Shown in pieces: positions 5,172 through 59,589 of a stretch of DNA of 64,000 bases (within the stretch, counting starts at the first letter, position 1; each line of letters begins with the position of its first letter). The stretch is from Candidatus Parcubacteria bacterium (lineage in GTDB: Bacteria; Patescibacteriota; Minisyncoccia; UBA6257; JAGOQP01): contig AP024682.1 of the NCBI GenBank assembly GCA_025999395.1, positions 2,105-66,104 on the forward strand, read 5' to 3'. Under the pieces are notes generated by a model. The model was not told where the DNA came from, ran no database searches, and saw only the letters and a program-made list of their open reading frames with translations. Both the position numbers and the translations under genes were made by a program.

Positions 5172-5286
5172 ATTCCCCGGCGAACCCTACTTTCCCCCAT
5201 AAAGGAGTATCATCGGGGTGCAGTGCTTTCACTTCCTAGTTCGGAATGGAATTAGGGTGGTTCACACTGCACTAAATCACCGGGAA
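5172..5286 (-). rRNA. rrf: 5S rRNA
   Basis: Reverse complement contains CCACCCTAATTCCATTCCGAACTAGGAAGTGAAAC, matching the conserved 5S helix/loop consensus. Terminal helix CCGG.../...CCGGGG. Confidence 0.7.
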
Positions 5287-5471
5287 ATCAATAGAGCCTT
5301 TGTTTTTACTTTGGGTAATTTTCTGCAAAGTGAAGGCAAAGCAGAGAAACTTAAAAGTCAAGATTAATTCGGGCTATTAGTACTCCTCGGCTAAAATCCT
5401 TACGGATCTTACACCTGGAGCCTATCAAGGTCGTCATCTTCGACCGCCCTAGGATGCCTAATCTTGGGGTG

Positions 5472-5504
<33 letters not shown>

Positions 5505-5630
5505 CTTCCGAACATAGCTACCCGGCGCTTCAGCTGGTGCCAAAGCCGGTAGACCAGAGGTTCGTTCAGCCCGGTCCTCTCGTACTAGGGCCAACTCCCC
5601 TCAAGCATCCAACGCCTGCAGCAGATAGAG

Positions 5631-5664
<34 letters not shown>

Positions 5665-6353
5665 GCGTACCACTTTAATTGGCGAACAGCCAAACGCTTG
5701 GGAGCTTCTCCACCCCCGCGCTGTGGTGAGCCGACATCGAGGTGCCGAGCGAGGTCGTCGATGTGGACTCTCGGACCTCACCAGCCTGTTATCCCCAGGG
5801 TAGCTTTTATCCGTTGTCTCCGGCCTTCCTATAAGGAGTCATCTTGTCTTGAATAAAACAAGATGACATTGCCGTCGGGTCACTAAGTTCTGCTTTCGCA
5901 TCGGCGCGACTTGTCAGTCTTGCCGTCAAGCCGGCTTGTGCCTTTACACGTCCAGCCCGATTTCCATCCGGGCTAAGCCGACCTTATAAACTCCTCCGTT
6001 ACTCTTTAGGAGGACAACGCCCCATTGAAACTGCCCGCCAGACACTGTCCCCTGACGTTTTTGCCGTCAAGGTTAGACTCTAAAACTTGGAAGGTGGGTG
6101 TTTCATTGGCGGCTCCATCCACCCCGAAAGGTGGACTTCAAAGCCTCCCCACTACGCTACGCATCCAAGCTCTAAAGCCAATATCAAGCTGCAGTAAAGC
6201 TCCTGGGGTCTTTTCGTCCCGCTGCAGGTACCCCGCGTCTTCACGGGAATCGCATTTTCACCGAGCTCATCCTCGAGACAGTTCTCCAGTCGTTACGCCA
6301 TTCGTGCGCTCCGGAACTTACCCGGAAAGGAATTGCGCTACCTTAGAACGGTT

Positions 6354-7107
6354 CACTTGTGTTATCGCTCCATTACCTTGGAGCTTCTCACGGTCGCCCG
6401 TGAGGTCGGACTATATCATTCCCACATATTGCGGGATCCGGCGTATAGTCTCTGAGGATTCAATTTACGAATCGAGATAGTCGGTTAATGAATATTTTCT
6501 TGTTCGCCCTTTTCCTTCGTTTAATTTTTCACGAAGAAGGAGAATTTTTTTAAACCCTTCTTCTGTTAAATGCTCTCCGCGAGCCATAAGCTTAACTATT
6601 TTTTTAAAGATAGAGAAATTTCTCACTTTCAATCGGGAACGGAATGAAAACTTCTCAAAGAAAGGAATTACTCTTTCGTAAAGCATTTTGTAATTCCTAA
6701 CCTCAAAGTAAGCTACTCCATCCTTTCTTTTCCTTAATCTTCCGGTTCCTAATGATTTTTTCAGAAGGATTAGATTGCTTATGTCTCGCTGAGAGACATT
6801 AAAACTTGGTTCGACTTTCCATTTTAGTTGATAATCAGAAACTTTTTTAAGAGAAACATTGAAGCTTCCCTCTCCATCAACAAAGCCTGCCAGATACCAA
6901 CCCACTTCCTGAGGAACTTTCTTTAGCCATTGATTTGAAGTTGTCTGATTCATAGTTGTGGTTACTTGTGATTCGTAAATTGTCTTTCCTGCGGATTGTC
7001 TCTCCACAAAGATTTTTACTGACACGATGACTAGTCGTGCCGAGTACTTTGCTTCAACGAGACTTTCCCGCATATAGCCGGATTTTATAACTACAGACCG
7101 TTATCCT
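6354..7107 (-). mobile_element. group I intron inserted in 23S rRNA domain IV (near E. coli positions ~1917-1931), encoding a LAGLIDADG homing endonuclease
   Basis: Exon sequence ...GGTAACTAT | AACCGTTCTAAGGTAGCG rejoins to the conserved 23S ...AACTATAACGGTCCTAAGGTAGCG. 5' exon ends in U and the intron ends in G (omega G at 6354). The internal ORF carries LAGFVDGEGSF. Confidence 0.7.
6465..7073 (-). CDS. LAGLIDADG homing endonuclease (intron-encoded; likely true start at internal Met ~6953)
   Basis: Single LAGLIDADG motif WYLAGFVDGEGSFNVSL. Size ~160 aa from the internal Met MNQTTSNQ. Located inside 23S rRNA. Confidence 0.75.
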   Translation of the reverse strand: MRESLVEAKYSARLVIVSVKIFVERQSAGKTIYESQVTTTMNQTTSNQWLKKVPQEVGWYLAGFVDGEGSFNVSLKKVSDYQLKWKVEPSFNVSQRDISNLILLKKSLGTGRLRKRKDGVAYFEVRNYKMLYERVIPFFEKFSFRSRLKVRNFSIFKKIVKLMARGEHLTEEGFKKILLLREKLNEGKGRTRKYSLTDYLDS

Positions 7108-8677
7108 ATAGTTACCGCTGACATTGACGAGGGCTTCGGCCGCTCAGCCGTAAGACAACTTGCGTTCTCTTACGACCGGCAGCTTTAACCTTCTCGCATC
7201 GGTCAGGCGTCACCCCCTATACATCCTCTTACGAGTTCGCAGGGAGCTGTGTTTTTAGTAAACAGTCGCCAGAGAGACTTTAGCTGCGGCCTTGCTTACG
7301 CAAGGCAGGCCTTATCCCGAAGTTACGGCCGCTTTTTTGCCGAGTTCCTTGAGGATGACTCACTCGTTCCCCTTAGGCTTCTCGCCTCACCCACCAGTGT
7401 CGGTTTACGGTACGGGCCTAAGTTCTTTATCCTTAGAAGTTTTTCTCGGAAGCTGGCTCGAGGGACTTCCCTTTGATAAACGCCGGGTCGTCTCTACTCT
7501 GGGACTCGCCATTGAAGGCAGTGTTCCGGATTTCCCAAGAACACGTCCTCGATCAAGAACGCCAAACCATTAAGGCGCTCCCTCTACTCAACTTCGTCAC
7601 TCCATCGGGAAGAACTTAGGGGGCCGGAATATTAACCGGCTGTCCATCAGCTTCGGCTTTCGCCATTGCCTTAGGTCCCGCCTAACCCTTCGCTGATTTC
7701 CATTGCGAAGGAAACCTTGGATTTTCGGGGGTCCGAGTTCGCATCGGACTTGTGGTTACTCATGCCAACATTTTCTCTTCCAAACGCTCCACTCCGCCTC
7801 GCGGCTAGAGCTTCATCGCTGTTTGGAATGCTCTCCTACCCCCATCTCATCAAAGGCAAGAACGCTGACTTACGCCGACCTAACGCTAAACCACACAGAA
7901 AAATAAAAAATTTGTTCCGCGTTAGTCTGCGTTAAGCCTGTGTCTTTCCGCGATCTTGTCTCTGACAAGATGAGTCGTGTCTTCGGTAGTGTGCTTAGCC
8001 CCGGTAAATTTTCGGCGCAGCCTGCCATCTAGTAGTGAGTTGTTACACACTCTTTAAAGGATGGCTACCTCTAAGCCAACCTCCTACCTGTCTCTGGCAG
8101 ACCACTACCTTTCACACTTAGCACACATTTAGGGACCTTAGACGACGATCTGGGCTGTTCCCCTCGCGACTATGGAGCTTAGCCCCCACAGTCTAACTGC
8201 CCGAGCTTTACGTTAGAGTATTCGGAGTTTGACTGAGAAGCCGAGCTTTCGCCCTTTACTTCTCAACCAGTGGCTCTACCCCTCTAACGTTTTTCCCGGA
8301 CGCCAGCCCGAAAGCTGTTTCGGAGAGAACCAGCTATTACCAGGTTCGATTAGCTTTTCACTCCTTACCTCAGGTCATCCGAAGGTTTTGCACAACCCAC
8401 CGGTTCGGGCCTCCTCTTGTCTTTCGACAAGATTCACCCTGCCCAAGGTAAGCTCACCTGGCTTCGGGTCTTATGCGCACCGCGTCATCTTGCTAAAAGC
8501 AAGATGGGCGCCCTTTTAAGACTCGCTTTCGCTCTGCCTCCGCTCCGTAGAGCTTAGACACGCGATGCACATAAACTCGTTGGCTCATTCTTCAATAGGC
8601 ACACCGTCACCCTTGCGGGCTCCGGTTCCTTGTAGGTGTGTGGTTTCAGGTTCTATTTCACCGGCCTCACCGGCCTG

Positions 8678-8714
<37 letters not shown>

Positions 8715-9390
8715 ATCACTAAACGTATTTAGCCTTTCCTGATAGTTCAGGAAGATTCCCTCAGGGCGTTCGTTCCCCGAGGTACTCAAGGATGTATACT
8801 AGGAAGTTCTTTTGTTTTCGCCTACGGGACTTTCACCCTCTTTGGTTCTGCTTCCCAGCAGATTCGGCTAACAAAAGAATTTGTAACTTCCCCTTATCGC
8901 CACAAGCGGATTGATGCCAAGCTTTAGCACCAATCCGCGAGAGCGACAGCGTATACACCTTACAACCCCTTCTTTGTACTAAAAAGTACAAAGAAGGTTT
9001 GGGCTCTTCCCTTTTCGCTCGCCGCTACTGGGGGAATAACGATTGTTCTCTTTTCCTCCGCTTACTGAGATGTTTCACTTCAGCGGGTTTGCCTCTGCCA
9101 ACTTGAGATTGGCAGATAACTGCGGTTTACGCAGTTGGGTTGCCCCATTCGGAGATCCCCGGATCACAGGTTGCTACGCACCTCCCCGAGGCTTATCGCA
9201 GCTACGCCACGTCCTTCATCGCCGTTTAGTGTCGAGGCATCCACCACACACCCTTAACCTAATCTTGACTTTTCAAGTCCTCTGCTTTTACCTTCACTTC
9301 GCAGAAAACTACCTTTATACCTGCGCTCTTCAATTTTCAAGGTTCTAAGATACTTAGTAGATTCTTTACCCTTGGGCAGATCTCCTGAAA

Positions 9391-10258: not shown

Positions 10259-12294
<2,036 letters not shown>

Positions 12295-18387: not shown

Positions 18388-20131
18388 TTAAAATTCTTCG
18401 GTTTCTCTCAAAACCGCTTCCAAAGAAACTAATCCTTTCAAAGCTTTAATCACGCCATCTTGACGCAAGGTAATCATCTTTTGACGCTTCGCTTCCTTAA
18501 CAATTTCGGATTCCGATTTTCGACTAACAACAATTTCTTCTAACTCTTTAGTCATTTGTAAAATTTCAAAAAGAGCTACTCGCCCGCTTACTCCTTTTCC
18601 CTTACAAGCTGGGCACCCCTTTGATTCAAAAATTTGATAAGAAGAAATTTGTTCTCCTTCCAATTCTTCCAAAACCTGAGGATCCATTTCTTTAAGAGTT
18701 TTTTCAATAATGGCTTTAATTTCTGAAGAAGGCTCCTTTTTAGAAAGACATTGCTGACACAAACGAGGAATTAATCTTTGCGCCACCATTAAATTAAGAG
18801 CCGCTGGTAAAAGAAAGGGTTCTACCTTCATATCCACCAGCCGGGGAATAACTCCGGCAGCATTATTGGTATGCAAAGTAGAAAGTACAATGTGACCAGT
18901 TAAGGCCGCGTGAATTGCTAAACCCGCAGTTTCATTATCTCGAATCTCTCCTACCATAATTACATCTGGATCCTGACGCAAAATTTGTCTTAAACCCGAG
19001 GCAAAGTCGTAACCAATCTCCGGATGAACCTGCGATTGGTTGAGCCCGTCGATGTAATATTCAACTGGATCCTCCAAGCTGACAATATTAACTTGCTCTT
19101 TGTTTAAAATCTGCATCAAAGCATACAAGGTGGTGGTTTTTCCTGAACCAGTCGGCCCAGTAATTAAAACCATCCCGTAGGGTTTTTTTTATCCCTTCCT
19201 GTAAAATTCTTAAGTTCTTTCCCAAAAGTCCTAATTCTTCCAACCCTTTTAATCCTACTTGAGGATCTAGGACTCTTAAAGCAATCTTTTCTCCTGCCGG
19301 AGTGGGAAAAGTCGCTACCCGAAAATCGATGTCTCTTCCCAAAAGCACCGTCCGAAACCGGCCATCTTGAGGAACGCGGGTTTCATCAATTTTCAAATTT
19401 GCTAATACTTTAATTCTGGAAACAATCGGCTGATGAAGCTCCAAAGGCATTGAGCTTACTTCCTGAAGTTCTCCATCAATTCGAAAACGAATACGCAACC
19501 TTTCCCTTTGAGGCTCAATGTGAATATCAGAAGCTTTTTGCCAAACTGCTTCTTTTAAGGTAGAGGCTACAATTTTAATAATGGGAGCCTCTTCAGCACC
19601 CGCTCCCGCCTCGATTTGAACAATTCTTTGAGGAAGAGAAATTTTTTTACTCCCTAAAGAAAGAAGAGATTTTACTGCTGCCTCAACTTCACTTCGATAA
19701 GGAGAATACTTTCTTAAAATACTTTCCCAAAGCCCCAAAGAAACCAAATAAATTCCCAAATTCACTCTCAATTGTTTAGCAATAAATTTCAAAGCTTCTT
19801 GAGCCTTTATATCATCCGGATTAACCATTCCGGCTACCAACAATCCTTCTTCAAAAGAAAGAGGAACAATCTTAAAATTTCTAACCGTTTCCTCAGGAAT
19901 CAGTTTAATTAACTCATCACTAATAGTTTGAGGATCAACTTGTTTAAAAGGAACTTTTAAAATTTGGCTCTTTACTTTCAAGACATCTTCCTCAGGTACC
20001 ATTCTCTTTTCATAGATAATCTCTTCGGCGGATTTCTTAGAAAAAGAGCTTTCCTGAAGAATTTTTTGAGCGGTTTCGGGAGAAATTAATTTTTGCTCTA
20101 AAAGCTTGTCAAGAAAAACCTTGTTTTCCAT
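18388..20131 (-). CDS. pilB: type IV pilus assembly ATPase PilB (GspE family), frameshifted in a T8 run (19185-19192)
   Basis: The N-terminal ORF (19088..20131) has the GspE N-domain and start of the ATPase. The C-terminal ORF (18388..19173) has Walker A MVLITGPTGSGKTTTL and a tetracysteine motif (CQQC...CPAC). Frame switch reads ...IKK(T)PYGMVLITGPTGSGKT. Confidence 0.8.
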
Positions 20132-49208: not shown

Positions 49209-49667
49209 TTATTTGTTCCCATTCCCACGCTTTTTCCAAAGTGGGATCCTATTGAAGAGAGATTCTGGCAGAGACTCTATCGTCACCGTCACCGCTGCCG
49301 CTAAAATAGCAATATCTCTTACGGTTATATCAGTAATACCGCTGGTCACTAAAATAACTCCAAGGTGAAGAGCGCCTATTAAAGCTACCAACCAAGTAAA
49401 AGAATTAATTAAAAGCAAAAAACCAACGGAAATATCCAAAATCGCTGTCCCTAACATTGCTTGAGAAAGAGGTATTGGCAAAAGCTTAGCCGCCCAAGGT
49501 TTTAAATAACCTCCCCACGCCTCCGGCTGCTTAAGAATCAAAATACCAATCCAAAGAAAGGTAATCGCCAACCCTATTCTTAAAATATGAAATCCGACTG
49601 CAGAATGTTGATTATTGAATCTCATAAAAAAATACCGCATTAGGGTATTATAAACTTTATTAGTCAA
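49209..49667 (-). CDS. DoxX-family membrane protein
   Basis: 152 aa. Four TM helices with the DoxX-like pattern (RIGLAITFLWIGILIL...). Confidence 0.45.
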   Translation of the reverse strand: MTNKVYNTLMRYFFMRFNNQHSAVGFHILRIGLAITFLWIGILILKQPEAWGGYLKPWAAKLLPIPLSQAMLGTAILDISVGFLLLINSFTWLVALIGALHLGVILVTSGITDITVRDIAILAAAVTVTIESLPESLFNRIPLWKKRGNGNK

Positions 49668-49740
49668 AAAGAAAATTAAACTTACAAAATTAAGAATGTT
49701 TTGAAATAACTTTTAAGTAATAATTTGGGATGAAAAAATT

Positions 49741-51009
49741 AAAAATTGAATAGGTAGATTAGACGATCTCCTGAAGACGACGATAGACGTGATCTACAAA
49801 AGTAGAAATTGAATAGGTAGATTAGACCTCTTTTAGAGAAAATGGACGATTGGATCTACAAAAGTAGAAATTGAATAGGTAGATTAGACACAAAAATGTC
49901 AAGCCCCTACCTGTGGAATCTACAAAAGTAGAAATTGAATAGGTAGATTAGACACTACGTTCAGAGTTAATCCCAGAGTATCTACAAAAGTAGAAATTGA
50001 ATAGGTAGATTAGACAGTTTAAAATCCGGGGCTTGGGTATATATCTACAAAAGTAGAAATTGAATAGGTAGATTAGACTGTATAGAACATCAACACCACA
50101 ATATCTACAAAAGTAGAAATTGAATAGGTAGATTAGACTGGAAATGGTTTGCTTTATATTCAAATCTACAAAAGTAGAAATTGAATAGGTAGATTAGACT
50201 GTTAAAATTCTTAAAAAGTATCTATCGATCTACAAAAGTAGAAATTGAATAGGTAGATTAGACAAATAGTAAATACAGTTATAGAAAAAATCTACAAAAG
50301 TAGAAATTGAATAGGTAGATTAGACAATACATACCAACATTATGGAGCAAAATCTACAAAAGTAGAAATTGAATAGGTAGATTAGACTATCGCTTAGATC
50401 AAAGCATAAATTATCTACAAAAGTAGAAATTGAATAGGTAGATTAGACTAAGCATTAGCCCATACATTGAACAAAATCTACAAAAGTAGAAATTGAATAG
50501 GTAGATTAGACTAAGCATAGCATAACATTGAACAATATCTACAAAAGTAGAAATTGAATAGGTAGATTAGACTGAATTAGCAAGAATACAACCGATGGAT
50601 CTACAAAAGTAGAAATTGAATAGGTAGATTAGACATTGAAATGTCCCCGACCTTTATATTATCTACAAAAGTAGAAATTGAATAGGTAGATTAGACAAAT
50701 ATACATTCCTAATCCTGCCTTTATCTACAAAAGTAGAAATTGAATAGGTAGATTAGACACGAAGTAAAAAGAAATACCGATTCATCTACAAAAGTAGAAA
50801 TTGAATAGGTAGATTAGACTGTATCGCTAAATTCGCAACCCTATCTTATCTACAAAAGTAGAAATTGAATAGGTAGATTAGACATTGGAATAATTATGTG
50901 ATTAAAGTAAAATCTACAAAAGTAGAAATTGAATAGGTAGATTAGACTATTTATGCAATTCTAAACAGAATTAATCTACAAAAGTAGAAATTGAATAGGT
51001 AGATTAGAC
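49741..51009 (-). CRISPR. CRISPR array, type V-A (Cas12a) repeat: 20 full 36-bp repeats + 1 degenerate terminal repeat (49741-49764); 20 spacers of 24-28 nt
   Basis: Plus-strand repeat ATCTACAAAAGTAGAAATTGAATAGGTAGATTAGAC. crRNA sense (minus strand) GTCTAATCTACCTATTCAATTTCTACTTTTGTAGAT ends in the Cas12a handle AAUUUCUACU-UUU-GUAGAU. Full repeats start at 49792, 49854, 49918, 49980, 50043, 50103, 50164, 50228, 50290, 50352, 50413, 50476, 50537, 50599, 50661, 50723, 50784, 50848, 50912, 50974. Confidence 0.95.
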
Positions 51010-51220
51010 AGCGGAAATGGCTTAAAATCAATATAATTTTGGCCAAGCCAAAAATTAATAATTTGCAAAAACCTCATAAAATAAAGCCATTTCCGCCATA
51101 AAAATTCATAAAGACTGAGGTTTTGCAATTTTATGTACATTTTAAAATATAGTAATCTACCCACAACAACTTCTACCTTTGTTATTAATTAAACTAATGT
51201 AAAACTGTCAAAGAACTGGA
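51010..51220 (-). promoter_or_regulatory. CRISPR leader (AT-rich, ~210 bp between cas2 stop and first repeat) with nested inverted repeats
   Basis: 13-bp IR GCGGAAATGGCTT (51011-51023) / AAGCCATTTCCGC (51086-51098). IR TTGCAAAAACCTCA (51056-69) / TGAGGTTTTGCAA (51115-27). Palindrome TTGGCCAA. Inverted degenerate repeat copy at 51153-51183. Confidence 0.5.
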
Positions 51221-51502
51221 CTAACCAAAAACAACCACTTCCTTTTCTTCATTTTCTGAATAACCGTATCTTCTGATTTTCTTTTGGCATGACTCACACA
51301 AACTTAAAATAATCACACTATCAGATCCACCAAATTTCTTGCTATAATTTGATTCTATCTCAATTAAAATATTATTCAAGACTCTTTGACTATTTTTAAT
51401 CTCATAAACAGAATACTGGATTTTCCTACCAAACTTCTTTAAAAATTTAGAAAATTTATTTCTTTGCCTGTCGTCTTGAATATCGTAAGAAACTAAAATC
51501 AT
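51221..51502 (-). CDS. cas2: CRISPR-associated endoribonuclease Cas2
   Basis: 93 aa. MILVSYDIQDDRQRNKFSKFLKKFGRKIQYSVYE, the canonical Cas2 N-terminus (VSYDI...R..V...L...G.R.Q.SV.E). Confidence 0.85.
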   Translation of the reverse strand: MILVSYDIQDDRQRNKFSKFLKKFGRKIQYSVYEIKNSQRVLNNILIEIESNYSKKFGGSDSVIILSLCESCQKKIRRYGYSENEEKEVVVFG

Positions 51503-51521
51503 ATTCTCTTCAATAAAACTA

Positions 51522-52477
51522 CTAACGCGATACTTTAAAATAAGGAAAATTATACTTTTCGCTGTCCATTACAAAATGATAAAAATCTCTTATATATTTA
51601 TAAATTTCTTCTTTATTTTTCATTATTGTTTCTAAAAAAACCGAAGCGTATTTCGTAGATTTGCTGTAAAGCATATAAACTTTGCTATCTTTTGCTTTAA
51701 AATCTTTTTCATTAAAAATTTTTAAGTTAAAAATTTTTAGCACTTCTCGATCAACAATGCATCTAAACGGCTCAATAATATCGCAAGAAAGGGATTTCCT
51801 TTGAAAAAATAACTTGTGATAAAAACCCTTATAAGTATCGAAGCCAAAAAGATTCAGCAAAGCATCTATAAAATTAAAAAGTAAGGTATAGCCCATATCT
51901 AATAAAAAATTGACTGCGTCAGGCTTAACTCTGGGCATTCGTGCAAACCAACCAATTTCTTTAAAATAAGCAGAAAAAAATTCTTTTGAGAAATTTCCCT
52001 CAATTCCTCTTAAGGTCTCTAAATTTTCAGCTTGATTAATTAAATTTCTGATTTCTTGTTTTGTTCTACTAATTAATTTCCCTCTTGATTTAAGCAATCT
52101 AAGTTGATTCTCAATTTTATTTAAAACAAGACTTTTAGAAAATTTTAAATCAAAATCGTCTGAAAAAAAGTATTGTCTCATTTTCAATAAATAATTGCCA
52201 CATTTTTCGCGCCAATTGAGGCGTAACAACGGAAACTATTATCTAGCAAAAAGAAGGAGATACCATATTTTAAGCCTTTTTTAATTAACTCAGAGGTGAT
52301 AGAAATGTTACCAATAATAAAAACAGAAAATATTCGGTGACAAGATACTCTATTTTCTACTCGTTCATCTTTTTCAAAAACAATATTGTCGTTGTAAATT
52401 TTAATCTTATTTAAAACACCGCTTTCGGTCTTAATAAAAAGAATCTGCTTTTGTCTAAAATCCGGAAGAGTAATCAT
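51522..52477 (-). CDS. cas1: CRISPR-associated integrase Cas1, split into two frames (97 aa + 235 aa; shift near 52200-52215)
   Basis: N-terminal ORF MITLPDFRQKQILFI...GNISITSELIKKGLKYGISFFLLDNSFRCYASIG (Cas1 beta-sandwich domain). Second ORF ...NYLLKMRQYFFSDDFDLKFSKSLVLNKIENQLRLLKSRG...ARMPRVKPDAVNFLLDMGYTLLFN (Cas1 alpha-helical catalytic domain pattern). Combined ~330 aa. Confidence 0.75.
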
Positions 52478-53043
52478 TTTACCAATTTAAGGTTGAATAA
52501 ATAGAATTTTGACCACCTTGGGCAAGAATGGTTAATTAACTGGAGAGGATTAAAATTCCTTATGCGTTTAAGAATATCCTCAAATATGTTTTTATCCTTA
52601 TTAGAAGGAAGGGGTATAAAGTAATTTTTATTATCGCTCATAGATCTAATAATTATTTTTTTAACTTCATAACCCATTTCCAAAAGACAGAAATATTGAG
52701 CATAAAGCTGATATTTATAACCGTCATAAATGCATTTTACTTTCGTTTTTCTTTCAATTAGAGTTTTCTCTTCTTTGTCATAAATATCAATCTTGCCCAT
52801 TATTCTATACTTGTCGCTATAAACTTCTTTTCCAACAAGAAAACGATTGGAAGTAGAATAATTTTTTTCTTCAATGGATTGATGTTTTATTCTCCCTTTT
52901 CTTTGCGGTTCATCATGAAACAAATCATCAGAAAAATCTTCATACATCATATGAAGATATAAAGTTTTTGGACAATAAAGAAAATCGTTAATTTTAGAAA
53001 TTGGGATATAGGAGTACATTATCTTTGAACAAATTTGTCCCAC
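52474..53043 (-). CDS. cas4: CRISPR-associated Cas4 (PD-(D/E)xK RecB-like nuclease)
   Basis: 189 aa. N-terminal YCPKTLYL, motif II/III GKIDIYDKEEKTLIERKT (D...ExK), QxxxY motif YKYQLYAQYF. Only one C-terminal Cys (HSCPRW). Start overlaps the cas12a stop; stop overlaps the cas1 start by 4 nt. Confidence 0.7.
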   Translation of the reverse strand: MGQICSKIMYSYIPISKINDFLYCPKTLYLHMMYEDFSDDLFHDEPQRKGRIKHQSIEEKNYSTSNRFLVGKEVYSDKYRIMGKIDIYDKEEKTLIERKTKVKCIYDGYKYQLYAQYFCLLEMGYEVKKIIIRSMSDNKNYFIPLPSNKDKNIFEDILKRIRNFNPLQLINHSCPRWSKFYLFNLKLVK

Positions 53044-56000
53044 TCTTCCTTTGAAATGCTTAAATCCGGTTTATTAGGATTATTTTTGATTTTTTCTAAA
53101 ATAATTAATCCTTTTCTGGCAATGTTATAAGCGCCAACACCATCAGCATCAAATTTCTCCTCTGGCTTATATTCTTTTAATCTATCTTTAAATTCAGCCA
53201 AATTTTCAGAAGCAATTTCTTCTCTGGCGTTATCTTTCACGACTTTCCCATCTTTTTCTATACCAATTTCTCTCAAACCAAAAGTTGTGAAAAATGGTTT
53301 TACTGGCGAAGCAAAAAAGTCAATGCCATAATCAATTTTTTTAAGTTTCTTTTCCGTCTTATCAATTTCTACTGATAAAGAATAAGTATTTCTCACTTGC
53401 AAAACAATATTAAAGAGAAAAATAAATCTCTCGTAAAAGTTTTTTAATCTTCCATCAAACTCCTTTTTTTCGACTAATAATTTATCGTTTTCTGCTATCC
53501 TCTTTTTAAGATTAGAGAGGATGTCGTTACTTTGTGCCTCAAATCCGTATTTTTCCAATAAATCTCTAAACTCCTCGTTTAAATTAATCTTTTTATAACT
53601 CCAATAACTACTTTTTGATTCTTTCCATCTTATGACTCGAGGAACCTTTGTCCAAATAGTCCAATCCTTGCTAAGAGGTTTTTTCTTTTTCTCGGCAAAA
53701 TCAACTTGATTGTATTCAATAAAATAACTTTCTTCTGTATCATCCCAGCCAAATTTTTTTAATTTATTTATTAATTCTTTTATCTTCTCTTGCGAAGCAG
53801 AATTGCTAATATAAATATTTTTTCTAAAACCAGTTAAGGGATCGGTTTGAGAAGTGTATTCCGCGCTCGTGTAAAATAGAACTCCGGTTTGTTTGGCTTT
53901 CTCAATATCTTTAAAAGAAGTAAAGGGCGCGGCTAACTGATAACCGTTTAAAACACCACCCGGAGAAAAAACATCACGATTATCTTTAAAAATCAGATAA
54001 TTCAACTTATCTATCAATGCTTTTTCAAATTGTTGATAAACTGTTCTTTCAGAAATACCATTTCTAATTTGTTTAAATCTTCTACTTAAATCTTCTAAAA
54101 CAACAATCGCATTATGGTTTATAATCAAATCGCAAATCTTTCTTACTACATAAGAAATATATCCTTGTTTTAAATCTTTAATTTTAGCCACTGGTTCCCA
54201 AGATTGTCTTTCTAATTGTCGTTGCTTTTCTCTTTCAACAAGTTTGTCAAAATAATTAACATTATTTACCTTGTTTAAATTTATCTTGTTTAAGCTTCCA
54301 TAGTCTAAAATTTCTTGATTCTGGTTAATCACGCAATAATAAAGAAGGTTCTTCTCGCCTCGGTCAATACCGATAATATTGATTTTACCAAGATTATCTT
54401 TGATAAAATGATTTAATTTACTGGAAAAATTTTTAAACGAAGAAGATGGTTTATCAGCGTTTAGAGTAATAGGACAGTGAAATAAATATGTAGGTTTTAA
54501 ATATCTTTGATAATGATAAACAGGTTTATCTTCTCTCTTTGCCTGCTTTGCGCCATTTAATCTTTCTAGAATAACCGGCTTTCTCATTTCTTCATTCATT
54601 TCTAAAACATCTCTATAAAATATTTCTGCTTTCCCGTTTAATCTAATTAATGGATATTTTATTTCTTCTAAATTTTCCTTGCTAAAAATATGTTCCCAGT
54701 AAAGAGTGTGAATATTTTTCCTGCTATCTGGTTTTTTGTATTTATAAAAATCTTTATTAGAAACTTCAAATAAATAAAGATTGCCATCATTTAGTTGTTT
54801 TTCAATATAACTCGCCTTTATTTTATCAAAATTTATCTTGTACCCCTGAAGAGCAATATGATCGGTAAAATCTTTAAAGGTTTGATATTCTTCTGATGGA
54901 AGTAATTTTAAATCAAATTTTTTCCAATAAATAAGAGCGCATTTTCTAAAATAATTAATAATTTTAACCAAATCCTCTCTATTTACTTTTTCCCTTTTAT
55001 ATGTACCTTTTTCTTTTATCCTTTTTATTTCATCTGGCCAATGTTTATTTTTTTCTTCTAATTTAGTAAATCGTTTTACAGTATTGTCTGGCATTAATAC
55101 CAAATTAAAAATATCCTTTGCCGGATCAGCTATTTGCCAATAATTCATTTTTAAATAGAAATCCTCATTATCATTAGCTAAAATTTCATTTTTTAAATTA
55201 TTTTTTCTTTCCTTTTCTTTCTGGTTATCTTTTTCAGTAATTTGATAATCAAACAATTTAGAATTCTCTTTTCTCAAAACGCCAAGATAATATTTATTGT
55301 TTTTTATAAAAATCAACCCCAAATTATCTTTTTCTTTACTAACATCCCAACCATCTAAAAGACTGCGGCTTTCAAAATTTAATTTTATCTTATTCTCATC
55401 CGAAGGTTTTTTAGTTATAAAATTTCTGATTCCATTATAATATTTGTTAAATTCAAAATTATTAAAGTATTCATCAACTAGACGATAAAATTCAGTGCTT
55501 AAACCGCTAGGGACATCTTTTCTATCTTTATCTGATAAATTAAAATACCGCATCATTCGGTTAATGCGCAAAGCAGCATCGCAGTAATTTTTAATCGTTT
55601 TAATCTGCTCTTTCTCCGCTGAATAAAATTTAATTTTCTCGGCTTCTTTTTCTAATTTATCCGTATAACCCCAAAATATCTGAATAGGTTCTCCATTTTT
55701 ATCTTTTTTAATTTCGCCTTTTTCAACCTTATCTTTAAAAAGCGACTCAAATTCAAACCGCCAAATTTTAAGAAAATTCTCCCAGTTATTACTCTTTTCT
55801 TCTTTTTCTAATGGCGCTTCTGGATTTACTTCGTTTTTGTAAAATCTCGATTTAAAAATATCGCCTTCTAAACTTAAAATCGCATTTTTAAATTCGTCTA
55901 GAGAGGTAAATTTTTTAAGTTTTATTTTCTCTTCTGATTTAACGCCCGTAAGTTTCATTAAAAATTCTTCCGGATTGGAAAACCATTTATTAACAATTTC

Positions 56001-57269
56001 GTTTATAACATTCTTCTTTAAATAAATACTTTGATAATCATTTTCAAAAATACCACTGGTAAAATCCTCAATAAATTTTTTAGCGCCTTCAATTTCTTCT
56101 TTTTCATCGCCGTAAATTTTTATTTTATTTCTCTTTATAAACTCTTGGAATCTATCAATAAAAACCTCTTCTTCTGTTTTTTCATCTTTCGCTTCTATAA
56201 AAACTCTTTCCTTTTTAACTTCTCCAAGAATTTGTTTTTCTAAATTTAGAAAAAGCGGTAAATCTTTTTTATCTATTTTATTTTTATCGCGGTATTCTTT
56301 TGTTTTTCTGTTAATTTCGCCGATTATTTTGTTATATTTATCAATTCCTTCTTGAATTAAACAATCATAATAGTAGTTAATTTCAAAAACTTTCTCTTCT
56401 TCTTTAGTTAGCCCAACATCCTTAGCTTTGTTTTTATATTTTTCTTCAAAAAGAGATTTATTTTCTAAGAATCTTTCAAAATTGCTAACAATACGGGTAG
56501 CAACCGCTGTGCTCGTGCCGTCATCTTTATATAAATTTTCTCTTGTCTGCTGGAATTTAGATAGATAAGTGGTAAATTTGTCGAAACTTTCAAAAATATA
56601 AATTTTCTTTCCCGGATTTAATTCGTCATTTATAAATAAACTTGGATAGCCCTCTTTTCTAAATTCCTCATCTTTCTCTGCTGGAAACTTATATTTTAAG
56701 ATATTTATAATTCCGGCGGCGGTCAAAAAATTAACCCCTTTTTGTTTTAAATCAGCACTACTAAACTTTATCTTCTCTTTCTTACCACCCCTTTCAATTT
56801 CTTTATCTTGATATTCTTTCTTCCATTTCTCCGCTCTTTTATCAAATAATTCTCTTATTTCTTTATAAAGATTTTCTCTTTGACCCTCGATTTCTTTTTC
56901 AAGTTTAGAAATTTCGTCCCAATTCTTTTTATTTTTATCTTTAACCTCTTTGTTTTTCTTTTTTAGAGAGACAATTTTCTCTTTATTTGACTCAAAAATT
57001 TTCGCAAACTTTTCAAAATCAATATTCCTAATTCCATTTTCAACAGATAATGATTCTTTAATAAAATCTTGATGGAGTTTATCAAAATAAAATTTCGCTT
57101 GATTATAACTTTTATCTATATTTAAATCTTTCTTAAAAATGTCATTTTCCTCCAGCCACTTCTTCGTCTCGCCAACCGGTTTTAATTCAAACCTTAATGT
57201 CTTTTGTAATGAATATTTTTTAGTAAAAACCGACCAAATGCTTTGAGTTTGATTATTTTTATTCTCCAT
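53019..57269 (-). CDS. cas12a: Cas12a (Cpf1), type V-A CRISPR effector, 1416 aa
   Basis: N-terminus KYSLQKTLRFELKPVGETKKWLEEN (Cas12a WED-I signature KYSLSKTLRFELIPQGKT). PI/WED region GNLYLFEVSNKDF...NIHTLYWEHIFSKENL...LNGKAEIFYR. RuvC-I IGIDRGEKNLLYYCVI, RuvC-II NAIVVLEDLSRRFKQIR, RuvC-III FDADGVGAYNIARKGL. Confidence 0.92.
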   Translation of the reverse strand: MENKNNQTQSIWSVFTKKYSLQKTLRFELKPVGETKKWLEENDIFKKDLNIDKSYNQAKFYFDKLHQDFIKESLSVENGIRNIDFEKFAKIFESNKEKIVSLKKKNKEVKDKNKKNWDEISKLEKEIEGQRENLYKEIRELFDKRAEKWKKEYQDKEIERGGKKEKIKFSSADLKQKGVNFLTAAGIINILKYKFPAEKDEEFRKEGYPSLFINDELNPGKKIYIFESFDKFTTYLSKFQQTRENLYKDDGTSTAVATRIVSNFERFLENKSLFEEKYKNKAKDVGLTKEEEKVFEINYYYDCLIQEGIDKYNKIIGEINRKTKEYRDKNKIDKKDLPLFLNLEKQILGEVKKERVFIEAKDEKTEEEVFIDRFQEFIKRNKIKIYGDEKEEIEGAKKFIEDFTSGIFENDYQSIYLKKNVINEIVNKWFSNPEEFLMKLTGVKSEEKIKLKKFTSLDEFKNAILSLEGDIFKSRFYKNEVNPEAPLEKEEKSNNWENFLKIWRFEFESLFKDKVEKGEIKKDKNGEPIQIFWGYTDKLEKEAEKIKFYSAEKEQIKTIKNYCDAALRINRMMRYFNLSDKDRKDVPSGLSTEFYRLVDEYFNNFEFNKYYNGIRNFITKKPSDENKIKLNFESRSLLDGWDVSKEKDNLGLIFIKNNKYYLGVLRKENSKLFDYQITEKDNQKEKERKNNLKNEILANDNEDFYLKMNYWQIADPAKDIFNLVLMPDNTVKRFTKLEEKNKHWPDEIKRIKEKGTYKREKVNREDLVKIINYFRKCALIYWKKFDLKLLPSEEYQTFKDFTDHIALQGYKINFDKIKASYIEKQLNDGNLYLFEVSNKDFYKYKKPDSRKNIHTLYWEHIFSKENLEEIKYPLIRLNGKAEIFYRDVLEMNEEMRKPVILERLNGAKQAKREDKPVYHYQRYLKPTYLFHCPITLNADKPSSSFKNFSSKLNHFIKDNLGKINIIGIDRGEKNLLYYCVINQNQEILDYGSLNKINLNKVNNVNYFDKLVEREKQRQLERQSWEPVAKIKDLKQGYISYVVRKICDLIINHNAIVVLEDLSRRFKQIRNGISERTVYQQFEKALIDKLNYLIFKDNRDVFSPGGVLNGYQLAAPFTSFKDIEKAKQTGVLFYTSAEYTSQTDPLTGFRKNIYISNSASQEKIKELINKLKKFGWDDTEESYFIEYNQVDFAEKKKKPLSKDWTIWTKVPRVIRWKESKSSYWSYKKINLNEEFRDLLEKYGFEAQSNDILSNLKKRIAENDKLLVEKKEFDGRLKNFYERFIFLFNIVLQVRNTYSLSVEIDKTEKKLKKIDYGIDFFASPVKPFFTTFGLREIGIEKDGKVVKDNAREEIASENLAEFKDRLKEYKPEEKFDADGVGAYNIARKGLIILEKIKNNPNKPDLSISKEEWDKFVQR

Positions 57270-57335
57270 ATTTTTAAATTTATTTAATTATTTTTTAACC
57301 TTTGATTTTTAATTATTCCCCCAAAAATCAAAAAG

Positions 57336-57435
57336 GGACGACGGTTGTCGCCCAATAGATATGCTTACCAAACGGTTAAGCGCTACTGGAACCGTCGCCC
57401 CTCTTTGATGAGAAGGCGGCATATCTATTGGCGAC
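57336..57435. repeat. GC-rich ~100-bp imperfect palindrome in the cas12a upstream region (nested hairpins)
   Basis: Outer IR GTCGCCCAATAGATATGC (57347-64) / GCATATCTATTGGCGAC (57419-35), 17/18 match. Inner IR ACGGTT (57372-77) / AACCGT (57390-95). GTCGCCC occurs twice. Composition ~55% GC within an AT-rich intergenic region. Confidence 0.5.
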
Positions 57436-57440
57436 ACTCA

Positions 57441-57470
57441 TTAGTATAACAAAAAATAAAAATTATGCAA
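57441..57470 (-). promoter_or_regulatory. candidate sigma70-like promoter for cas12a (minus strand TTGCAT-N16-TATACT)
   Basis: Reverse complement of 57443-57470 reads TTGCATAATTTTTATTTTTTGTTATACT. It would place the palindromic element in the cas12a 5' UTR. Confidence 0.3.
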
Positions 57471-57726
57471 TTTAAACCACAACCTTTCTTATCTATAAAT
57501 TATACCGCAATTCTGAATAATTTTCTGATTAGTACAATTTAAAAACCTCTCCGCCTCTCCATAAGAGTAATTAAGCTGGCTTTTATAAAGCTTATTACCC
57601 TCTAAAAAGCAAGTAAAATTAGGCCGAGGATTACTGAGGCTATACTAAGATACTGATTAAAAACAAGTTTTTTAAGAAAAACTCGGATACCAAAAAGATT
57701 TTAAGTAATAAAATCTAAAGCCCAAG

Positions 57727-59589
57727 TTACCAACTGCCTCCTCCGCCACCCCCTGAACCGCCGCCGGAGTGGCCGCTTCCGCCAAAACCGCTGCTAAAAC
57801 CACCACTTGATCTAGAGGCAGTATTAAAAACTTGATTAAAGGAATTGTTAAATAAAGTTAAATTATTTACAATCATATGACTACTAAAGGCTGTTGCTGT
57901 TGGATCCTCATACCAATTTGGAATAGAGTTATAGATTCCCTCAAATTTTTTAGCCCACTTATCTTCAACTCCTAAAACCATTGCGTAAGGCAAGAATTTT
58001 TCAAAAACCTCAGGTTTAAGTTCGGGAGCGTTGGTGAGTTCTAATTTGTCCTTTTCGGTTAATTCCAAAAACTCTTTAAACCCTAAGATTTTTTCAAGCG
58101 CTGAAATTCCCTGCGGAGTTAACTTATCAGAAGATCGGAGAATATATCTTACACACAAAATGCTTCCCACAATAACCAAAGCGGTAAAAATAGATTCAAA
58201 AATACCTGAAATCTGAATTTTTGCCAAATTCAATATTAAATCCAATCCTCGAAAACCAACATAGACAGCAACAATCACCACAAGAATACGAGAGATTGTT
58301 TTTTTCATTTTAATTTGAGTAAAATAACCTTTATCAGAAAGATATTGCTCTACATCTTCAGTTATTTTTTTAATGAGCAATTGGAAGGTTGTTCCTTGTT
58401 CTTTTAATTCGCTTAATTTAACGCTGTCCCGAACATTAAATAAAAAATTAAAGACTATTTTATCAGCAGGATGAGTTAAATCAGCGCCATCTTTAAGCTT
58501 AACAAATTCAAAATCTTTTTTATCTGGCCAGAAAGGAATCTCTTCAAGAGTGTAGCGAATCTTTAGATAACCTCTAACAGCCAAGTTGATAATAACAGAG
58601 GAAATATCAGCAATATCGACGCGACGATCTAACAAAGCGCCAACATCAATCGGAGATAAATTATCAGGCGGCTCATATTGAGTAGTAATGAGACGGTTTT
58701 TTAATTCGGCAGGAATAACCGGTTTTGGTTTAGTTGTTTTTCTAGAAAGGATTCGAAACCAGAAGTAGATAAAAAACAAGAAAAAGATTATGAATATAGA
58801 GATAAAAGAGATAAACTCATCAATCACACTAAACAAACTTGAATTGGAAATAGGAAGATAAGGAGAAGGAAGAGAATAATCTGTGGTGGAGGAGACATAA
58901 GTATTTTGTATGTACCCTAACGGTATCCCTAAAACAAATGTTAAACCTTCTTTTGCATTTAAAGGTTGAGTGGCGGAATAGCTAATGTTAGCGCCATTTT
59001 GATTAAAAACACAATTCTTTTGCGTACTTCCTTGCGGGCCAGTAAAACAATCCATTTTAATGCCTACAGCGACAAAATCAGGAAGTCTTACCAAAGCACT
59101 GGCGTTTTGAATAGCTACAGGCCATTGATTTCCAGTAACATTCCAATAGAGCTCATCATGATCATTAAAAGTTCTAATGGCGTTATAAACTCGATAACCA
59201 ATTACATAAGTTTTAACTCCGCTTACAGTTACATTTGGATCCCCGATCTTGATTCGCAGAACATTATTTGTAACCGAAGTAGTGTATTGGTAGGGTTCTC
59301 CTACTTCGTCGCTTACATTAAAAACATTAATACTTAATTGCGGACCATTTGTTGATGTTAGTGGAATATCCCTGAAAATCCCGTGTTTCTGATTGGAGCC
59401 AAAATCATAGATAATAGTTTCAGTAACAACAAGAGAGCCGTTTTTTTGAATATCTATATTAGCATTAAAACTTTTTATAACTTCGGATTCTGCTTTTGTT
59501 GTACCAAAAAGAAAAAAGCCCAAAAATAAAAATAGCAAACCAAAAACAGAAAGGTATTTTAGAAAAGCACTTCCTCTGCTAATCTTCAT
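57727..59589 (-). CDS. DUF2207-family membrane protein with C-terminal Gly-rich tail
   Basis: 620 aa. N-terminal signal/TM, extracellular domain, TM helices, C-terminal SGGFSSGFGGSGHSGGGSGGGGGGSW tail typical of DUF2207 proteins. Adjacent to lemA. Confidence 0.5.
   Translation of the reverse strand: MKISRGSAFLKYLSVFGLLFLFLGFFLFGTTKAESEVIKSFNANIDIQKNGSLVVTETIIYDFGSNQKHGIFRDIPLTSTNGPQLSINVFNVSDEVGEPYQYTTSVTNNVLRIKIGDPNVTVSGVKTYVIGYRVYNAIRTFNDHDELYWNVTGNQWPVAIQNASALVRLPDFVAVGIKMDCFTGPQGSTQKNCVFNQNGANISYSATQPLNAKEGLTFVLGIPLGYIQNTYVSSTTDYSLPSPYLPISNSSLFSVIDEFISFISIFIIFFLFFIYFWFRILSRKTTKPKPVIPAELKNRLITTQYEPPDNLSPIDVGALLDRRVDIADISSVIINLAVRGYLKIRYTLEEIPFWPDKKDFEFVKLKDGADLTHPADKIVFNFLFNVRDSVKLSELKEQGTTFQLLIKKITEDVEQYLSDKGYFTQIKMKKTISRILVVIVAVYVGFRGLDLILNLAKIQISGIFESIFTALVIVGSILCVRYILRSSDKLTPQGISALEKILGFKEFLELTEKDKLELTNAPELKPEVFEKFLPYAMVLGVEDKWAKKFEGIYNSIPNWYEDPTATAFSSHMIVNNLTLFNNSFNQVFNTASRSSGGFSSGFGGSGHSGGGSGGGGGGSW

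Follow-up and report, generated by a model that had tools for sequence, protein, structure and literature searches.

In the best described Cas12a systems, those of Francisella novicida (FnCas12a), Acidaminococcus sp. (AsCas12a) and Lachnospiraceae (LbCas12a), the genes follow the order cas12a-cas4-cas1-cas2-array, the 36-nt repeat ends in AAUUUCUAC-loop-GUAGAU, no trans-activating CRISPR RNA (tracrRNA) is present, and the effector comprises approximately 1230-1310 aa. Cas12a systems from bacteria of the Candidate Phyla Radiation (CPR), including Parcubacteria, Dojkabacteria and Roizmanbacteria, were part of the original Cpf1 set (Zetsche 2015, as cited in PMC6509639), and a CPR "group 1" of Cas12a was later described in which the RuvC-III Asn is replaced by Val and the RuvC-II Glu by Asn (Chen et al. 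2019, PMC6509639). Metagenomic Cas12a-M families with 4-nt-loop repeats, including the ~1,400-aa Cas12a-M57, have also been reported (Goltsman et al. 2020, PMC7757703). In the present study, a CRISPR-cas locus was analysed at 49729-57269 on the minus strand of a 64-kb stretch of a Candidatus Parcubacteria genome (assembly GCA_025999395.1, contig AP024682.1, positions 2,105 to 66,104); this whole stretch is hereafter called the window, and all coordinates follow its numbering. It is very likely that this locus represents a genuine, canonical type V-A CRISPR-Cas12a adaptive immune system, carried by a CPR bacterium with a genome of approximately 0.56 Mb that lives in hot-spring sediment at 52 °C, and all of the defining features of a type V-A system that could be tested are supported by the results presented herein. 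Like the CPR systems described previously, it combines a CPR/Patescibacteria host and a very small genome with type V-A architecture.

The assignment of the effector is based on full-length matches to Cas12a. The 1416-aa product of cas12a (cpf1; 53019-57269; BCX15829.1), which is the sole effector of the locus, scored 605.1 bits against the equivalog model TIGR04330 cas_Cpf1 (cut-off 300) and 967 bits against the PADLOC Cas12a model, with residues 11-1416 covering profile positions 3-1145 of 1147. The Pfam search assigned aa 159-346 to REC1, 946-1415 to RuvC_1 and 1143-1311 to NUC, and no family match to an HNH domain was obtained in that search. Among PDB structures, ReChb matched at 6e-132, and the chains of the three classical enzymes at E values between 1e-84 and 1e-117 (FnCas12a 1.8e-117, AsCas12a ~1e-105, LbCas12a ~1e-84). 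In FnCas12a, D917, E1006 and D1255 are the RuvC residues, R1218 is the Nuc arginine, and H843 (acid), K852 and K869 (base) form the RNase site (PMC11127173). D969, E1059 and D1376 of the window protein align to AsCas12a D908, E993 and D1263 (HMMER/phmmer), and D969 also aligns to FnCas12a D917; R1293 is the putative equivalent of FnCas12a R1218, judging from the motif Q-x-R-N-[ST] (here Q-V-R-N-T). When 50 homologues with 34-75% identity were aligned, neither the three acidic residues nor R1293 varied. Thus, the RuvC D/E/D triad and the Nuc arginine of the Fn, As and Lb enzymes are kept, and the original prediction, which had asserted that all three RuvC motifs are retained and had named a profile comparison of the 1416-aa protein with Cas12a as a check, agrees with these results on both counts.

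In other respects, the protein departs from its described counterparts. Unlike the Fn, As and Lb enzymes, it reaches 1416 aa, and its N-terminal REC region contains additional Lys/Glu-rich sequence. Its nearest separate cluster shares 73% identity, whereas the named CPR relatives, from Moranbacteria and Kaiserbacteria, share only 35-36%. Like CPR "group 1", it carries Val in place of the RuvC-III Asn; unlike that group, in which the RuvC-II Glu is changed to Asn and a second protein, Cas12a', is present, it keeps E1059 and is the single effector. The large size of this metagenomic Cas12a and the 4-nt loop of its repeat, within the pattern UCUAC[N3-5]GUAGAU, recall the Cas12a-M families; membership of Cas12a-M57 is unsupported, since the M57 model covered the protein in part, with 419 bits, compared with 967 bits for the generic Cas12a model. 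The protein of a sister MAG (metagenome-assembled genome), MCX7615899.1, falls in the same 90%-identity cluster, differs at one DNA position and is named "type V CRISPR-associated protein Cas12a/Cpf1" by NCBI, whereas the record of the window protein itself, BCX15829.1, is labelled "hypothetical protein". A scan of GTDB genomes yielded two short contigs only, both from a single fragmentary MAG and with fragments that were 100% identical, and is uninformative on taxonomic spread.

The array (49729-51009) provides the second line of evidence. It contains 20 identical 36-nt repeats (GTCTAATCTACCTATTCAATTTCTACTTTTGTAGAT) spaced at 60-64 nt, a degenerate 21st repeat with 7 mismatches at the trailer end (49729-49764), and 20 unique spacers of 24-28 nt (mean 26.25); because 20 perfect copies are evenly spaced, the regularity of the repeats is not due to chance. 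The Cas12a handle motif has been given as UCUAC[N3-5]GUAGAU (PMC7757703), and the window repeat conforms to it: all 20 copies end in AATTTCTACTTTTGTAGAT, and the 3' part folds into a 5-bp stem, UCUAC/GUAGA, closed by a UUUU loop (-4.8 kcal/mol, z -2.5). The diagnostic 3' handle that had been claimed, UCUAC-UUUU-GUAGAU, is therefore present in every repeat, in a 36-nt unit like that of the Fn, As and Lb systems, and the mature CRISPR RNA (crRNA) is predicted to carry the handle AAUUUCUACUUUUGUAGAU at its 5' end, with the spacer after it. No paper containing the exact handle sequence was found in the literature. As in the classical systems, there is no sign of a tracrRNA, since the 64-kb window, apart from the array, contains no stretch that matches the repeat or its complement for more than 12 nt (one of the 12-nt matches lies within the cas12a coding sequence); the absence of an anti-repeat that had been noted holds for this span. 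The only observation favouring a different identity, namely that the repeats do not form a CRISPR array, or that the 1416-aa open reading frame (ORF) resembles Cas12a by chance or belongs to another type V effector family, is a weak secondary match to Cas12e/CasX of 63.8 bits, far under the cut-off of 200. Such an identity is extremely improbable; it is refuted by the full-length TIGR04330 and PADLOC Cas12a matches, which exceed the curated cut-offs, and by the 20 identical 36-nt repeats with their unique 24-28-nt spacers.

The remaining genes complete the order known from the Fn, As and Lb loci. The minus-strand ORFs were 53019-57269 (cas12a), 52474-53043 (189 aa), 52184-52477 (97 aa), 51522-52229 (235 aa) and 51221-51502. 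The second of these contains a type V cas4 (52474-53019; TIGR04328, 198.9 bits, cut-off 70), whose C-terminus is frameshifted and which truly begins with the ATG at 53019, thereby sharing 1 nt with the cas12a stop, a layout also seen in the related contig L001. The next two are fragments of one type V cas1 (51522-52477) matching TIGR04329, split by a 1-nt deletion at 52202. An intact cas2 of 93 aa follows (51221-51502; PF09827, 6e-17; TIGR01573, 1e-14), and its exact sequence occurs on at least 14 public contigs. From the cas2 stop to the first repeat extends an AT-rich leader of 211 bp (51010-51220), and the array continues in the orientation of the cas genes. The adaptation module is thus the cas4-cas1-cas2 set of type V-A systems with Cas4 and Cas1 of the PREFRAN type, although cas1 and cas4 of the window are frame-broken; the Cas1 of an intact relative scored 314.9 bits on the PREFRAN Cas1 model. 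Much of the layout proposed in the original prediction is borne out by the ORFs and profiles: the four genes are collinear on the minus strand in the order cas12a-cas4-cas1-cas2, cas12a and cas4 overlap at stop and start, the leader proposed at ~210 bp measures 211 bp, and the array indeed has 20 spacers, between 20 perfect repeats and one degenerate copy. The parts of that description concerning cas1 and its junction with cas4 did not survive, as described below.

The comparison with related loci showed how the array has changed with time. Ten further contigs from nine assemblies carry a cas operon 99.8-99.95% identical to that of the window, and the leader lies within these blocks of identity. 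Across the related arrays, the pattern of an active array is observed, with gain at the leader end and old spacers at the trailer. Spacers 4-14 of L004 are the same as spacers 11-21 of L001, whereas the leader-end spacers differ, 10 in L001 and 3 in L004. The window shares with these two arrays only its spacer 18 (spacer 16 of L001 and spacer 9 of L004) and the terminal spacer, which is common to all arrays; its remaining spacers are unique. Spacer turnover in these near-identical strains is leader-polarised, and the sharing of trailer spacers together with the difference in leader-end spacers argues that adaptation has been active in the lineage. The position of the degenerate repeat and of the oldest, strain-shared spacers far from cas2, and the position of the new spacers beside the 211-bp leader, place the leader next to cas2, with transcription in the direction of the cas genes. 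No convincing sigma-70 promoter was found in the leader, and when the leader and the region upstream of cas12a were scanned for promoters and terminators, nothing exceeded shuffled expectation. In addition, several spacers are near-variants of one another, including the pair 8/9 of the window (50449-50536), spacer 17 (49954-49979), which resembles spacers 15 and 17 of L001, and spacer 19 (49828-49853), which differs from spacer 14 of L001 by 2 mismatches; the order of the near-variants differs between arrays. These near-variants suggest repeated sampling of one site in diverging invaders, and recombination between arrays has possibly contributed.

Several observations weigh against the reading of the locus as a canonical and working immune system. 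First, the adaptation genes of the window are not intact. Where a single cas1 gene had been claimed, two ORFs in different frames are observed, one of 97 aa (52184-52477) corresponding to TIGR04329 positions 1-86 and one of 235 aa (51522-52229) corresponding to positions 88-316. One base is missing at 52202, where the window reads AAAAAT-GTGG and 10/10 of the other contigs read AAAAATAGTGG; the cas1 reading is intact in 10/10 of them, as a complete 318-aa gene in nine and as a partial gene in L005. In cas4, an extra G at 52514 (AAGGTGGTC compared with AAGGTGTC), absent from 9/9 contigs spanning the site, shifts the last ~11 codons, so that the Cas4 C-terminus ...CPRCQNSIYSTLNW becomes ...CPRWSKFYLFNLKLVK before the stop and the C-terminal CPRC motif becomes CPRW; the authentic stop would lie at ~52479-52481. 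The overlap of cas4 with cas1 that had been described exists only because this frameshift carries the ORF over the cas1 ATG, and where the locus is intact, the last base of cas4 lies two bases ahead of that ATG, with one base between. Neither indel is a simple homopolymer-length error, and within the 21 kb that could be compared, the indels of the window are confined to the cas4-cas1 region, so that a real minority or majority allele is possible. If the frameshifts were real, acquisition would be disabled, and Cas12a, cas2 and the array would form a frozen but functional memory. This interference-only locus would be consistent with the restriction of both unique indels, neither a plain change in homopolymer length, to adaptation genes, with none in the 4.2 kb of cas12a, and with the loss of the second Cys of the CPRC motif in Cas4.

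Nevertheless, an interference-only locus is improbable in view of the related contigs and of other genes in the window. Contig L003, compared with the window at 11,336 columns outside the array, shows 0 substitutions and two indels only, those at 52202 and 52514, and both genes are intact in it. L003 belongs to the Logan assembly of run DRR290133. The "mg"-series MAGs come from the Katase hot-spring study, in which 52 °C sediment was sequenced with PacBio HiFi and assembled with metaFlye (DRA011957; PMC9671151); the MAG of the window, KatS3mg098, in which BCX15829.1 is encoded on a contig of 561,860 bp, is linked to Katase by its record name, mg098 being absent from the main text of the paper. 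A further paper names the Katase study as its source, and DRR290133 is the sole DDBJ data set that it uses (PMC10928208); L003 was therefore very probably built from the same reads as the window. The cas1 reading is intact in all ten other contigs, and at least 16 spacers of the window are not found in the related arrays recovered, which points to recent acquisition. Moreover, frame breaks are found elsewhere in the window, indicating a general rate of indel errors. The gene for the NAD-dependent DNA ligase, ligA (10380-12270, minus strand), is split into 10675-12270 (531 aa; Ia, adenylation and OB domains) and 10380-10808 (142 aa; HhH), and a gene for a PilB/T2SSE ATPase (18388-20131, minus strand) into 19088-20131 (347 aa; MshEN and T2SSE positions 3-140) and 18388-19173 (261 aa; T2SSE positions 144-370). 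In both cases, the ORFs overlap in different frames, and the splits are probably assembly indels; ligA is presumed to be essential. Within the array, the terminal and oldest spacer 20 of the window (49765-49791) likewise carries an extra A at 49784 (CACGTCTATCG...); its length is 26 nt in every other locus, including L003.

Because the relatives are intact, L003 has no substitutions, and ligA and the pilB-like gene are also split, the breaks in cas1 and cas4 are most likely consensus errors of the metaFlye/HiFi assembly, and the locus of the organism is probably complete. The description of the locus as complete is thus incorrect for the sequence of the window, in which cas1 and cas4 are frame-broken, and very probably correct for the organism. 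Two other explanations of the breaks were considered. Real pseudogenisation of the adaptation module was downgraded, given the intact contig from what is very probably the same read set and the other split genes in the window. An alternative genetic code with UGA recoding, known from some CPR lineages, was rejected for cas1, as a change of frame separates its two parts and long ORFs are read normally under table 11. Single-base indels were also observed in other assemblies: in the Logan contigs L006 (2233-6484) and L009 (1-3938), cas12a is split into two ORFs by indels of their own, at an A-run (window 56900) and a T-run (55545), representing either errors or strain variants.

Second, the spacers searched against the window, INPHARED, IMG/VR and JGI yielded no protospacer, hence there is no PAM (protospacer-adjacent motif) and no direct evidence of interference. 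No self-target was detected in the window for the spacers with up to 5 mismatches, and none of the 20 spacers matched the INPHARED phages. In IMG/VR, no match was obtained for window spacers 18, 6 and 16, for degenerate patterns of spacer 19 and of the pair 8/9, or for two spacers of L001, and the JGI metagenomes contained no match to spacers 18 and 3. For the spacer-17 family, a degenerate core of 19 nt matched 5 IMG/VR contigs, where by a rough estimate a few chance hits were expected; these matches were rejected because the 7 PAM-proximal bases were mismatched and the flank was not T-rich. As no protospacer was found, no PAM could be derived, and a 5' T-rich PAM is assumed for the Cas12a of the window.

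Third, the effector appears to differ from the canonical enzymes in several segments. RuvC-III reads DADGVGAY (residues 1374-1381; window ~53127-53150), that is, DGVGAY where the canonical sequence, including that of the Fn, As and Lb enzymes, is DANGAY, and this substitution counts against the canonical reading. The Asn is replaced by Val or Ile in every homologue of at least 48% identity. The RNase triad of FnCas12a (H843, K852, K869) could not be placed in the window protein, where the loop appears to be shorter than in the Fn, As and Lb enzymes, and three aligners were discordant: phmmer paired H843 with K897, K852 with G906 and K869 with H919, MAFFT left the histidine loop of FnCas12a in a gap, and BLASTP gave a third, different alignment of the triad. 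AsCas12a K860 also fell on H919 with phmmer, so the lysine serving as the base would stand opposite a histidine. An Fn-like RNase loop is present in only 1/50 homologues. The PAM-interacting (PI) domain likewise appears to lack the "MLPK" lysine motif of the Fn, As and Lb enzymes, with "DIFN" in its place: the segment "KM[IL]PK" of most homologues reads "KDIFN" in the window protein, and a segment "KDI[FYH]NLVLMPDG" is common to several closer relatives (P0006, P0009-P0012, P0020 and P0022). We take the lysine of "KM[IL]PK" to be the PAM-reading residue, FnCas12a K671 and AsCas12a K607.

These differences might indicate a divergent Cas12a subclade with altered biochemistry, in which the RNase site has been rearranged or self-processing lost, and in which the PAM is not TTTV. 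The histidine at the position of the base (FnCas12a K869, AsCas12a K860), the discordant placement of H843 (opposite K897, in a gap or elsewhere), the shared PI segment of the closer relatives, and the replacement of the RuvC-III Asn by Val or Ile throughout the subclade of at least 48% identity, with the same change in CPR "group 1" (PMC6509639), would all fit such a subclade. Nevertheless, the short RNase loop is hard to align, and the substitutions may reflect alignment noise. Furthermore, the repeat retains the exact canonical handle with AAUUU upstream, the RuvC acidic triad is intact, and the arrays turn over and persist in many strains, a sign that crRNA biogenesis and interference are functional. 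Altered biochemistry of this kind therefore appears unlikely compared with a canonical function. In the same sense, it is a tentative suggestion, drawn from residue comparisons, that the Cas12a belongs to a largely uncharacterised and partly CPR-associated subclade, in which the acid-base pair of the RNase might be permuted and a PAM other than TTTV might be used; if true, a potentially thermotolerant Cas12a with a new targeting range would be available. For the canonical system that is preferred herein, self-processing of the precursor crRNA (pre-crRNA) by Cas12a is proposed from family membership and the canonical handle, and not from the residues of the RNase site.

Herein, we propose the following mechanism, whose steps are derived from family membership. 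The array would be transcribed from the leader, along the minus strand. Cas12a would bind the pseudoknot/stem-loop handle at the 3' end of each repeat and trim the pre-crRNA upstream of the handle without a tracrRNA. The resulting guides of 24-28 nt might then direct PAM-dependent recognition of invading double-stranded DNA, both strands of which would be cut at a single RuvC site (D969, E1059 and D1376, with the assistance of Nuc R1293). New spacers would be added at the leader end by Cas4, Cas1 and Cas2. Parts of this scheme correspond to direct observations, namely the anatomy of the genes and repeats, the membership of the effector in the Cas12a family, the conservation of its DNase residues and the leader-polarised turnover of spacers in near-identical strains.

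The gain for basic biology is small: a minority of CPR bacteria possess CRISPR-Cas, a pattern on record since 2015-2019, and the locus provides a further Cas12a system among them. The locus had been ranked among the most notable accessory features of its genome, and we rate it lower, since Cas12a has been known in CPR bacteria since 2015 and a near-identical protein has already been annotated as Cas12a/Cpf1. However, the related arrays constitute a clean natural case of leader-polarised spacer turnover in a symbiont-type genome of ~0.56 Mb. The subclade, whose RNase loop and PI segment appear non-canonical, is uncharacterised and possibly thermotolerant, and might be of use to genome-editing groups seeking new PAMs. 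In addition, caution is required with the MAG of the window, in which indel errors create false pseudogenes (cas1, cas4, ligA and the pilB-like gene).

Several further features of the window were observed. The G+C content of the CRISPR-cas locus (50000-58000) is 27-30%, compared with ~35% in the flanks, which suggests a horizontal origin. The flanking ORFs that were inspected, namely a DUF2207 ORF upstream and a weak DoxX-like ORF and a DUF5667 ORF downstream, included neither an integrase nor a transposase. Directly downstream of the array lies an ORF of 152 aa (49209-49667, minus strand), for which the DoxX match is sub-threshold only; its position is kept in all related loci, where it measures 138-143 aa. 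A 5S gene (5174-5285) follows the 23S ribosomal RNA gene, and no 16S gene lies within the window. The 23S gene (5357-9267, minus strand) spans 3911 nt, compared with 2925 nt for the model, owing to an insertion of ~1 kb, and insertions of this kind in ribosomal RNA genes are typical of CPR bacteria. Within the insertion, a sub-threshold match to a group I intron was obtained at 6387-6542, and the ORF at 6465-7073 encodes a LAGLIDADG homing endonuclease (PF00961, 3.8e-18).

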